NCBI GenBank assembly: GCA_035654835.1
Contig: DASRVZ010000008.1
Span: forward strand, 13,815-37,814
DNA from: Dermatophilaceae bacterium
GTDB lineage: Bacteria > Actinomycetota > Actinomycetes > Actinomycetales > Dermatophilaceae
Length of the DNA: 24,000 nt
Direction: 5' to 3'
Made by a program: the position numbers and the translations under genes. The notes beneath the pieces were generated by a model. It saw only the letters and a list, made by a program, of their open reading frames with translations. It searched no databases and was not told where the DNA came from. Positions 18,393 through 19,916 of the stretch are shown here, piece after piece (positions within the stretch are counted from its first letter, which is position 1; each line of letters opens with the position of its first letter).

Positions 18393-19175
18393 TCAGCCCG
18401 CCAATGATCCGCCGAAGATCTGCCAGGCGAGCAGGGACTTCGCCACGAGACTGAGCACCAGATAGGTCTTCTCGCCGTAGGCGTAGTCGGTCCACTTGCC
18501 GATCCCGCGGTACTGGAGCCATTGGTTGAGCCCGAAGCTGAAGAAGAGGATGACCTGGGTGACGACGATTCCGTACACGAAGCCGGGAACGGTCGCGGAC
18601 CCGAAGATGTTGAACGCGATCGAGACCCACGGGGCGAGACCGACGATCGTGCCGAACCAGAAGGGAAGCATCGTGGTCGTCGTGCGCCCCGGCGGGTTCA
18701 TCAGCTCCTGGACCCAGCCGAAGAGGATCATCCCGACGTTGGCGCCGATGATCGCGATGACGGCGTTGATGCTCGTGATACCTGAGTAGAAGCTGATGAG
18801 GATGATCATCAGGGTTGCGCTCACCGAGTACTCGACCCACCGGAACCGATTGATCCCTCGTCTCAGGTCACGCTCGTACGTGCTGCGATACACGGTGGCG
18901 GTCAGCAGATGATCGAGCGCTGCCAGTGCGAGGAATACAGCAACCGCCCATCCGATCCGCACATCGAAGACTGCGTCCGGGGCCGGGACGGCGGTTCCAG
19001 GCGGTCCCTCAGGGATAGACGAGGTCACGGTGATCGCAAAGCTGCCCGCGAGCACGAGGATCACCACCGCCTGGACAAGGTGCAACAACGTCAGGCCAAG
19101 ATTCCATGACCGCAGACCGGCAAGGCGCTGGGCGGTGACGCCGGTGGCCACCCGCAGGGTGTCGTTCCTGTTCAT
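18393..19175 (-). CDS. Heliorhodopsin (retinal-binding 7-TM photoreceptor)
   Basis: Long colinear matches to the remembered heliorhodopsin 48C12 sequence:
- NRFRWVEYSVSATLMIILIS vs NIFRWVEYSLSSSVMIVLIA.
- GMILFGWVQE vs SMILFGWLQE.
- LPFWFGTIVGLAPW vs LPFWFGCIAGIVPW.
- VPGFVYGIVV..YLVLSLVAKSLLAWQIFGGSL vs VPGFVYGIII..YIVLSLVAKSALAWQIFSGTL.

The Schiff-base Lys codon is at 18438-18440 and the counterion Glu (RWVEY) at 18831-18833. Both conserved His residues are present (LHLVQ, LDHLL). ATG 19175 is preferred because GAGGGGA lies about 5 nt upstream. Confidence 0.92.
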   Translation of the reverse strand: MNRNDTLRVATGVTAQRLAGLRSWNLGLTLLHLVQAVVILVLAGSFAITVTSSIPEGPPGTAVPAPDAVFDVRIGWAVAVFLALAALDHLLTATVYRSTYERDLRRGINRFRWVEYSVSATLMIILISFYSGITSINAVIAIIGANVGMILFGWVQELMNPPGRTTTTMLPFWFGTIVGLAPWVSIAFNIFGSATVPGFVYGIVVTQVILFFSFGLNQWLQYRGIGKWTDYAYGEKTYLVLSLVAKSLLAWQIFGGSLAG

Positions 19176-19274
19176 GACGCTCCCCTCGTTGCCACCGCTT
19201 GGCGGCATATGACGCGGACACCTATAGGAGCCAAGCGGCCAGCTGGGCTTGGGCGGCCTGACCTGGCACGCCGC

Positions 19275-19916
19275 TCAGACATCGCGAGCCAGCATGAAGA
19301 ACTCCTGCCGCGAGCGCGCGTCCTCGCGCAGTACACCGTGGACAGAGGAGGTTATGGTCCGCGAGCCCCTGGCCTGGACCCCGCGCATGGACATGCACAT
19401 GTGCTCAGCCTCGATCACGACGCCGACTCCCTTCGGGGCGAGGTGCTCCTTCAGCCACGTCGCGACCTGGACGGTGAGCCGTTCTTGAACCTGGAGGTCG
19501 CGGGCGAACAGTTCGACGACGCGGGCCAGCTTGGACAGGCCGAGAATCCGTTTGCCCGGCAGGTAGCCAACGTGGGCTACCCCGGAGAACGGCAGCATGT
19601 GGTGCTCGCACAGGGACTGCACTGGGATGTTCTTGGCCAGCACAAGCTCGTCATAGTCCTCGTCGTTGGGGAAGGTCGTGAGGTCGAACTCACGTGGCGT
19701 GAGCATCTCGGTGAGCGACTCCGCCACCCGGCGGGGGGTATCCGCGAGGTGCGGCGAGGAGGGGTCACGGCCAAGGGCCAGAAGAAGGTCGCGCACCGCC
19801 CGTTCAGCGCCTGGCAGGTTGACTTCTTGGCGGCCATGCACAACGCGCAGACGCCGACCTCCATCCGATCCGCCGATCGGTACCGCGACCTCATGCTCGA
19901 GTTCGGCAGTGCTCAT
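19275..19916 (-). CDS. folE: GTP cyclohydrolase I
   Basis: Diagnostic motifs SLCEHHMLPF, GLSKLARVVELFARDLQVQERLT and VIEAEHMCMSMRGV. RBS GAAGGGACGGG lies before ATG 19916. Confidence 0.93.
   Translation of the reverse strand: MSTAELEHEVAVPIGGSDGGRRLRVVHGRQEVNLPGAERAVRDLLLALGRDPSSPHLADTPRRVAESLTEMLTPREFDLTTFPNDEDYDELVLAKNIPVQSLCEHHMLPFSGVAHVGYLPGKRILGLSKLARVVELFARDLQVQERLTVQVATWLKEHLAPKGVGVVIEAEHMCMSMRGVQARGSRTITSSVHGVLREDARSRQEFFMLARDV

Follow-up and report, generated by a model that had tools for sequence, protein, structure and literature searches.

How is a heliorhodopsin (HeR) gene to be understood when it lies beside folE, the gene for GTP cyclohydrolase I? The question is raised by a stretch of 24,000 nucleotides from a Dermatophilaceae bacterium (contig DASRVZ010000008.1), here called the window, in which HeR follows folE on the same strand. 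HeRs are abundant, but, to our knowledge, their physiological outputs are known in three cases only, and each was found from an operon neighbor. The partner of AbHeR is a glutamine synthetase (PMC9529153) and that of TfHeR a photolyase (PMC9769723), both encoded in the same operon as the HeR, while OcHeR of Ornithinimicrobium, a related Micrococcales genus, modulates the multidrug ABC exporter OmrDE (PMC11109279). Two published surveys of HeR neighborhoods do not contain folE. One required a gap of <10 bp between the genes and does not list folE (Bulzu et al., 2021; PMC8612252), so that a pair separated by 99 bp would be excluded from it, while the other defined ten HeR neighbor groups, none of which contains folE (Kim et al., 2024; PMC11109279). 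Our literature search found no paper in which heliorhodopsin is connected to GTP cyclohydrolase, and the pair has not been described in the literature searched.

The gene identities, gene orders and regulatory motifs described below, from the window and from related loci, indicate that the locus is probably an accessory one, specific to its lineage and concerned with stress and light: a promoter of the SigH/SigR type would drive a spare folE, and HeR is co-resident and probably partly co-transcribed.

The heliorhodopsin

The open reading frame (ORF) at 18393-19208 on the reverse strand matches the whole of the Pfam profile PF18761, Heliorhodopsin (E 5.9e-97, 324 bits against a cut-off of 26.7), and also the NCBIfam equivalog model for HeR, NF038020 (267 bits, cut-off 100). 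Its start was assigned to the ATG at 19175, which gives a protein of 260 aa, because nearly all of the 120 closest homologs are 252-262 aa long and most are exactly 260. The structure of HeR 48C12 (PDB 6SU3) aligns with the window protein over its full length (E 1.3e-64), and this alignment equates the Schiff-base lysine K246 in transmembrane helix 7 (SLVAKS) with K241 of 48C12, the counterion E115 (RWVEYS) with E107, and the two histidines of the proton-accepting group, H32 and H89, with H23 and H80, all four of these residues being invariant among 15 relatives. The initial annotation, which had called the gene a heliorhodopsin and had named the lysine, the glutamate and both histidines, is thus borne out by both profiles and by the structural alignment. 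Judged by its sequence, the window HeR is intact with all signature residues and is a predicted retinal photosensor.

The protein is an ordinary member of a large actinobacterial clade of 260-aa HeRs, since it shares 78-95% identity with hundreds of such proteins from Streptomyces, Cellulomonas, Lapillicoccus and others. Like these it is homologous over its full length to 48C12 (PDB 6SU3/6UH3), with the lysine, the glutamate and both histidines kept. What sets it apart is its genomic setting only, with an accessory folE upstream and a gene for a predicted thioredoxin-fold protein downstream.

Identity and origin of folE

In actinobacteria, the housekeeping folate operon has the order hpt-ftsH-folE-folP-folB-folK. 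The window FolE belongs to the same enzyme family, as it matches PF01227 (E 2.3e-65, 219.8 bits, cut-off 27), TIGR00063 (193.9 bits, cut-off 181.6) and NF006826 (215.3 bits, cut-off 162). Its zinc and catalytic motifs are intact, namely CEHH in SLCEHHMLPF and HMCMSMRG (EAEHMCMSMRGV), and their counterparts in aligned rat and human GCH1 are SMCEHHLVPF and EATHMCMVMRGV (PDB 1IS7 and 7ALA; E 1e-53), so that the enzyme is predicted to be catalytically competent. It differs from the housekeeping enzyme in its gene context, in a 35-aa N-terminal extension and in a stress-type promoter. The FolEs of classical hpt-ftsH-folE-folP loci, represented by L138 (hpt-ftsH-folE-(Abi)-folP) and ten similar loci, are only ~53% identical to it, and the ftsH-linked FolE scores much higher on the FolE profiles (241.5 bits compared with 193.9 for the window FolE). 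No ftsH, folP, folB or folK gene was found by Pfam in the 24 kb window. The earlier observation that this folE stands outside the usual ftsH-folE-folP-folB-folK context therefore holds, both from the 53% identity to L138 and from its place in a separate, stand-alone clade.

The members of this stand-alone clade share 61-94% identity with the window FolE, and the closest of them (87-94%) are all environmental. Their usual arrangement is an ArsR-like regulator, folE and a ferredoxin reductase. In the relatives at 85-88% identity found by a metagenome scan (L087-L091), there is no HeR, a regulator of the HTH_20 (ArsR-like) family lies divergently upstream of folE, and a ferredoxin-reductase-like flavoprotein (Pyr_redox_2 plus Reductase_C) is encoded downstream. 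The same arrangement is seen again at 61-68% identity (L012, L099, L101, L105 and others), and neither ftsH nor folP lies beside the folE genes of either identity group. In the FolE tree, the HeR-linked FolEs make up two groups, A and B, that are nested among the regulator- and reductase-linked FolEs. From this tree and the 53% identity to the ftsH type, it follows that the window folE is, on phylogenetic grounds, an accessory copy from a stand-alone module and not a gene of the ftsH type.

The module, in which an ArsR-like HTH_20 regulator of ~230-250 aa is divergent from folE and the flavoprotein gene follows, is widespread in actinobacteria (L087-L091, L012, L099-L106). Its folE has a sigma-70-like promoter (TTGACG-N17-TAnnnT) together with a palindromic operator, such as TTGACGCTAGAG...CTCTAGCGTCAA in L100 and L106. 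The HeR-linked copies resemble those of the module in protein sequence (61-88% identity, interleaved in the tree) and in the leader close to the ribosome-binding site, where TTCTnAGAAGGGA is common to the module folE and the window folE. They differ in that the sigma-70-like promoter, the palindromic operator, the regulator and the reductase have been exchanged for a promoter of the type that extracytoplasmic function (ECF) sigma factors use, direct repeats, and HeR or, upstream, a gene of the major facilitator superfamily (MFS).

Conservation of the pair

One genome per GTDB species was scanned, giving 545 loci with a HeR relative, and the neighborhoods of the best 80 of these (73-94% identity) were compared over 6-kb flanks. 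A folE gene or a recognizable remnant of one lies within ~2 kb of HeR in 11 of the 80 loci, while 67 have no folE, including those of Streptomyces, Kitasatospora, Ilumatobacteraceae, Acidimicrobiia and Gaiellales. No other gene family is common to more than 8 of the 80 neighborhoods. In a neighbor-joining tree of HeR, the folE-linked loci are not scattered but make up two sister subclades, A and B, whose hosts are Dermatophilaceae, Phycicoccus, Lapillicoccus and unclassified Micrococcales metagenome-assembled genomes (MAGs). Beyond these subclades, only a Sporichthyaceae MAG (L012) has folE near HeR among the best 80 of the 545 loci.

In all 12 subclade A loci of the HeR tree, the gene directly upstream of HeR is folE or what remains of it, and in the sister subclade B HeR is divergent from folE, with or without an intervening MFS gene. 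In subclade A, the upstream, same-strand folE is intact in the window, L001, L002, L007, L081-83, L086 and L168/169 and is a remnant in L003, L010 and L084/85. In subclade B, HeR is divergent from an MFS-folE pair in L005, L050 and L172-174 and from folE itself in L043; a folE remnant is left in L004, and L006 and L018 have no folE.

The proximity of the two genes is found in five different gene orders across the two subclades and in at least four unrelated flanking contexts. P0203 carries the codirectional pair in a flank quite different from that of the window, P0152 carries it with overlapping stop and start codons, and the orders HeR-> <-ORF189 folE-> and <-HeR MFS-> folE-> are found in P0127 and P0239, respectively, while P0207 has folE without HeR, where it adjoins clustered genes for TspO, cyclopropane-fatty-acid synthase, DUF1365, an amine oxidase and an SDR. 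The window itself corresponds to a 28.4-kb contig of a soil-type metagenome in ENA (ERZ27294418 k141_584438). Three independent metagenome assemblies carry the folE-HeR pair with an identical FolE protein, and the pair is therefore not an assembly artefact. Whether the adjacency is conserved in relatives, a test that had been proposed when the pair was first noticed, thus has a divided answer: it is conserved within the two sister HeR subclades of Dermatophilaceae-like hosts and is absent from 67 of the 80 HeR loci. The pairing is lineage-restricted and often broken, and the link between the two genes is at most optional.

Losses, fusion and possible duplication

Deletion of folE beside an intact HeR has taken place at least four times. 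In L084/85, the first 46 and the last ~28 codons of folE are left (9634-9900 in L084), next to a HeR that is 95% identical to that of the window, and this deletion is recent, because L168 is syntenic with L084 and has an intact folE. The remnant consists of 36 codons in L010 (5809-5916) and 13 in L003 (5876-6000), and in L004 it is a degraded N-terminus (4144-4278). The opposite loss is seen in L170, where folE is kept and HeR is gone. There, this HeR-less folE of the HeR-linked clade adjoins genes for TspO, cyclopropane-fatty-acid synthase, DUF1365, an amine oxidase, an SDR and NmrA/DUF2867 (8766-14642); in other bacteria, this set of genes is linked to the response to photo-oxidative (singlet-oxygen) stress.

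A different rearrangement has brought the two genes closer together. In L168 (7635-7660) and L169 (4927-4950), the spacer of ~100 bp and HeR's own ATG are gone, and a new ATG overlaps the stop codon of folE (ATGTCTGA). This variant is present on six contigs from several samples and looks like a translationally coupled folE-HeR operon. With the spacer deleted, HeR in these loci must use the transcript of folE, and read-through would then evidently be sufficient for its expression. The pair may also have been duplicated as a unit. The MAG JBDTWH01 contains an A locus with a folE remnant (L003) and a B locus with an intact folE (L050) on different contigs, with coverages of 58x and 50x, and one of the two folE copies may have become redundant after such a duplication. 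Two HeR genes on different contigs are also found in the MAGs CAYPYK01 (L009, L022) and DASRUA01 (L031, L036).

These variants bear on the simplest account of the pair, that of neighborhood by descent, according to which HeR landed beside an accessory folE in an ancestor and too little time has passed for the two to separate, without any shared regulation or function. Such an account fits the restriction of the adjacency to one monophyletic HeR group in one family, the extensive gene decay at these loci (remnants of folE, of the MFS gene and of the thioredoxin-fold ORF), the otherwise highly variable neighborhoods of HeR, and the conserved element that HeR has upstream of its own start codon. 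It is less easily reconciled with a proximity that has outlasted five or more rearrangements and four or more flanking contexts, when drift should have parted the two genes, or with the 12-17% divergence of the A and B proteins, both genes being intact in most lineages. Moreover, the HeR of L168/169, which depends on transcription of folE, is nevertheless intact, at 95% identity, in several samples. Descent as the whole explanation is accordingly rather unlikely: HeR does not need an adjacent folE, and the pair has nonetheless been kept together longer than drift alone predicts.

The promoter-like motif and repeats upstream of folE

The sequence 66 nt upstream of the folE start codon contains the motif GGGAATATCGATCCCACCCGAGGGTGTTGA (20011-19982), which resembles a promoter of the SigH/SigR type. 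The consensus for these ECF sigma factors is GGGAATA-16..19-YGTTGAA (PMC3489674), and the window motif, GGGAATA-N17-TGTTGAT (20011-19981), fits it at each specified position except the last A. The motif has one match in the window compared with none in 100 shuffles. When the pattern was searched on both strands of 175 loci (3.2 Mb), there were 26 matches, all of them upstream of folE or of a gene for an MFS efflux protein of the DHA2 family and all in loci of HeR subclades A and B, with none elsewhere. Each match is followed by three or four 11-bp repeats, which in the window are the three tandem direct repeats ATTCGACGGAC, ATTCGACAGAC and ATTGGACGAAC in the folE leader. The same promoter-repeat cassette, with repeats resembling TAGACAGACAT, is also present in L001, L003-L005, L007, L032, L043, L050, L081-86 and L166-174; L084 and L168 each contain two copies, and it is retained upstream of the folE remnant in L003, L010 and L084.

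The motif is thus like the SigH/SigR (ECF12) promoters of Corynebacterium, Mycobacterium and Streptomyces, apart from the last A, but it differs from them in the 11-bp direct repeats that follow, which are not a known SigH/SigR feature. A literature search found no paper linking folE with SigH or SigR. The cassette suggests oxidative-stress control of folE and of the DHA2 efflux gene.

Two light-responsive systems were considered as sources of the cassette, and neither was accepted. The published consensus for promoters of the light-related ECF sigma factor LitS, GCATCCR-N15-CVGAAD, is not matched by it. The operators of the B12-dependent light repressors CarH and LitR consist of three or four tandem 11-bp repeats of the form nnnnTnnACAn (PMC9304148), and the window likewise has three tandem 11-bp repeats (three or four in its relatives) ending in ACA(T). 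However, the window repeats read CnnACA, with the conserved T replaced by C, and they are placed downstream of the -10 element, whereas CarH/LitR operators overlap the -35 or the -10 element. The identity with a CarH/LitR operator was rejected on this core base and position, leaving a resemblance only.

A stress-type promoter also bears on another reading of the pair, in which HeR and FolE would form a direct sensor-enzyme module. HeR would bind FolE by its cytoplasmic loops, and light would raise GTP cyclohydrolase I activity, or the two would merely be co-expressed, to give more pterin and folate; this supply could replace photolabile reduced folates or give methenyltetrahydrofolate (MTHF) to photolyases. 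The reading is based on analogy with the AbHeR-glutamine synthetase, TfHeR-photolyase and OcHeR-OmrDE pairs, since all three experimentally shown HeR partners are same-operon neighbors (PMC9529153, PMC9769723, PMC11109279), and the window HeR, which also stands beside a same-strand enzyme gene, would act alike if it bound the product of its neighbor. The persistence of folE and HeR within ~2 kb of each other through five gene orders is consistent with it, as are the agreement of the FolE tree with the HeR tree on subclades A and B, the movement of the pair between genomic contexts, the translationally coupled variant in L168/169, and the separate juxtaposition of HeR with an ArsR/folE-reductase module in the Sporichthyaceae MAG L012. 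The window differs from the known HeR-partner operons, however, in having GTP cyclohydrolase I as the candidate partner, in a 99-bp gap with a conserved element, and in the repeated loss of the partner gene.

The losses argue against this reading. Repeated deletion of folE while HeR persists, at least four times with HeR intact, means that the two are not an obligatory sensor-enzyme pair, and HeR has been lost once with folE kept. Among the 80 close relatives of HeR, the 67 (73-84% identical) that have no folE within 6 kb point in the same direction, as does subclade B, where the gene nearest to HeR is an MFS exporter and not folE. The folE promoter is of a stress-type ECF kind and not of a known light type, and folE appears in neither published neighborhood survey. 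Pfam searches revealed no photolyase gene in the 24 kb window, and the gene maps available for related loci show none either. These last points apply equally to the initial annotation's proposal of a light-linked pterin supply serving MTHF-containing photolyases, for which no evidence of a photolyase or MTHF link was found. A direct module of HeR and FolE is therefore unlikely.

The spacer between folE and HeR

The 99-bp distance first reported between the two same-strand genes is exact. A scan of 17700-20600 showed no terminator-like or sigma-70-like site within the spacer, six orthologous spacers fold no more stably than shuffled sequences (z -1.25 to +1.36), and a search of the spacer and leaders against Rfam gave no credible match, the sole match being an S4 leader at chance level (E 0.43). 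A hairpin, TGCCGCC-AAGC-GGTGGCA, located before the HeR ribosome-binding site was rejected when compensatory changes were not seen in orthologs.

No terminator-like structure separates the two genes, which share a strand and are 99 bp apart, and yet a conserved element hints at a separate HeR promoter. A block upstream of HeR, ATCGAGGGAG, is conserved across all subclade A loci, and the HeR-proximal half of the spacer (GGTGTCCGCGTCAT ... ATCGAGGGGAG-ATG; 19222-19176) is kept in all of them except L168/169. The core of the element, GTCCGCGTCAT, has a single exact match in the window. The element has been spared by each folE deletion in subclade A (L003, L010, L084/85) and is missing from L168/169 alone, the two loci with a HeR start that overlaps the stop codon of folE. 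In view of this retention, the element may serve HeR as a promoter or leader of its own. The HeRs of Streptomyces have a long conserved upstream region in common (GGCGGGGCGGTGGCGTGACTGCCGTG...).

Neighboring genes

The features of the locus are collected in Table 1. The gene convergent with HeR encodes a protein without a CxxC motif, and homologs of 171-189 aa adjoin HeR in 8 loci (L007, L084-86, L166-169). In the window, the gene has a frameshift at ~17923 that is present in three independent assemblies, the window and two others. The family has 511 homologs of ~171 aa and no Pfam domain. An AlphaFold (AF2) model of the protein (pLDDT 75, pTM 0.75) was matched by Foldseek to TlpA, ResA, Sco and peroxiredoxin folds (E 1.7e-5, TM 0.5-0.58), and the protein is on this basis predicted to have a thioredoxin-like fold. 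A Roadblock/LC7 label, which came from a Pfam match of 23.4 bits over 32 residues and from an NCBI name, was rejected in favor of this fold. More distant members of the family are found not next to HeR but, in L177, beside a carotenoid-synthesis gene and, in L175, near a B12-binding MerR regulator resembling CarH/LitR, and matches to the HeR-proximal motif or the cassette near these homologs (L175-177) were only at the level expected by chance in GC-rich DNA.

Table 1. Positions of the features of the folE-HeR locus in the window
Feature	Position	Strand	Remarks
Predicted thioredoxin-fold gene without CxxC, convergent with HeR	17847..18360	+	frameshifted or N-terminally truncated; 151-aa ORF at 17905-18360
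Heliorhodopsin (HeR) gene	18393..19175	-	260 aa; stop codon 18393-18395; Pfam, NCBIfam and 6SU3 alignment
folE-HeR spacer, 99 bp	19176..19274	-	no recognizable terminator
Shine-Dalgarno sequence GAGGGGA for HeR	19181..19187	-	5 nt upstream of ATG 19175; read from sequence
HeR-proximal conserved element GGTGTCCGCGTCAT	19209..19222	-	candidate HeR promoter, operator or leader
Stand-alone GTP cyclohydrolase I, FolE type IA, accessory paralog type	19275..19916	-	213 aa; PF01227, TIGR00063, clade placement
Three tandem 11-bp direct repeats (ATTCGACGGAC / ATTCGACAGAC / ATTGGACGAAC)	19938..19970	-	folE leader; presumed operator
SigH/SigR-type ECF promoter-like motif GGGAATA-N17-TGTTGA	19982..20011	-	66 nt upstream of folE ATG
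TPR-repeat ORF divergent from folE	19958..20440	+	Pfam TPR_14, TPR_16, TPR_19; window-specific flank

The second recurrent neighbor is the DHA2-family efflux gene (TIGR00711, 245 bits), which is the immediate divergent neighbor of HeR in subclade B and is one gene away from HeR in L084 and L168. Could the real partner of HeR be this pump or the thioredoxin-fold protein, with folE a bystander that has the same cassette? By analogy this would agree with the modulation of the multidrug exporter OmrDE by OcHeR (PMC11109279), with the positions of the DHA2 gene just described and with its promoter-repeat cassette, which is that of folE, while the thioredoxin-fold ORF convergent with HeR in 8 loci echoes the glutaredoxin and GSHPx neighbors of HeRs reported by Bulzu et al. 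(PMC8612252). Yet there is no MFS gene near HeR in the window, the ORF for the thioredoxin-fold protein has a frameshift in the lineage of the window and a truncation in L168, and its distant homologs do not lie beside HeR, all of which make this reading very unlikely.

The TPR-repeat ORF on the other side of folE lies outside the conserved unit, having no homolog in related loci except in the window's own lineage. The ~18 codons at its beginning lie across the folE promoter, and translation probably starts at a later GTG (~20030). Further from the pair, a choline-to-glycine-betaine cluster occupies 10252-17709 on the HeR strand, with genes for a BetA-like GMC oxidoreductase, an OpuAC/OpuAB/OpuAA ABC transporter and a BetB-like aldehyde dehydrogenase; it is not kept beside HeR in related loci. 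A double-domain KaiC-like ATPase (PF06745 in two stretches, E 2.5e-98) is encoded at 6534-8279 on the reverse strand, ~10 kb from HeR, and a GAF-ANTAR regulator is encoded divergently from it at 8520-9311. The window as a whole has a GC content of 60-69%, and the rest of it contains genes for an acyl-CoA carboxylase subunit, DivIVA, a GntR regulator, an NCS1 permease and a response-regulator fragment. As had been stated at the outset, no crt or blh genes for retinal biosynthesis are found by Pfam in the 24 kb window.

Other genes also lie near HeR in the related loci. In L166 (1914-4615), HeR is preceded directly upstream, on its own strand, by genes for an NTP_transf_9 protein, a Rieske protein and an oxidoreductase of FAD/amine-oxidase-like type (416 aa); in L084 and L168, an NTP_transf_9 gene is found after the MFS gene. 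Genes for TerC-family membrane proteins lie near HeR in Streptomyces loci (L033, L048, L051, L074, L010), in agreement with the TerC neighbor group of Kim et al. (2024; PMC11109279).

Discussion

The history proposed for this locus begins with the widespread module of an ArsR-like regulator, folE and a ferredoxin-reductase-like flavoprotein, from which the folE copy would descend. In the A/B lineage, folE would have gained an ECF promoter of the SigH/SigR type and three 11-bp repeats, a cassette that in sister loci would also drive the DHA2 gene. The enzyme would be switched on by thiol-oxidative or heat-type stress, photo-oxidative stress included, with further control by a regulator that binds the repeats, and it may have a physiological role in pterin or folate supply. 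Because there is no terminator between folE and HeR, transcription would be expected to read through from the one into the other, while HeR also keeps its own upstream element. The resulting cluster would comprise folE, HeR, the thioredoxin-fold protein and the DHA2 exporter, held together by co-regulation or by co-residence, and folE and HeR have been inherited, rearranged and possibly duplicated together, and look like a fused operon in one lineage.

Several points weigh against this preferred account of an accessory stress/light locus. The HeR-folE association represents one, or perhaps two, evolutionary events, and shared descent could explain much of it. The dependence of folE on SigH or SigR is suggested by a consensus match, and its accessory status by clade and context, which make it a presumed paralog. 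The retention of the HeR-proximal element after the folE deletions may mean that HeR is transcribed independently, in which case read-through would be irrelevant. Finally, the bin JBDTWH01, which carries both an A and a B locus, could be mixed, although the two coverages are similar.

A stronger form of the stress interpretation would be a photo-oxidative-stress module of HeR and the accessory FolE, in which the SigH/SigR-type promoter and the repeats switch the enzyme on and HeR tunes GTP cyclohydrolase I, or the DHA2 exporter, in the light; we regard this as improbable. With or without such tuning, the SigH/SigR-type promoter and repeats on folE and on the efflux gene predict induction by oxidative stress, perhaps gated by a second regulator. 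HeR-folE is in addition a candidate for a fourth HeR partnership that can be tested cheaply with a soluble enzyme assay, and the natural variants provide usable controls, namely loci in which folE is deleted and HeR is intact, those in which the spacer is deleted and the genes overlap, and those with divergent and inverted orders.

If the two genes prove not to be coupled, the locus would be an ordinary lineage-specific accessory island, and it would counsel caution in inferring function from synteny among close relatives. If the photo-oxidative module were true, non-phototrophic Actinobacteria would thereby link light sensing to their supply of pterin and folate, and GTP cyclohydrolase I would represent a new class of HeR partner.

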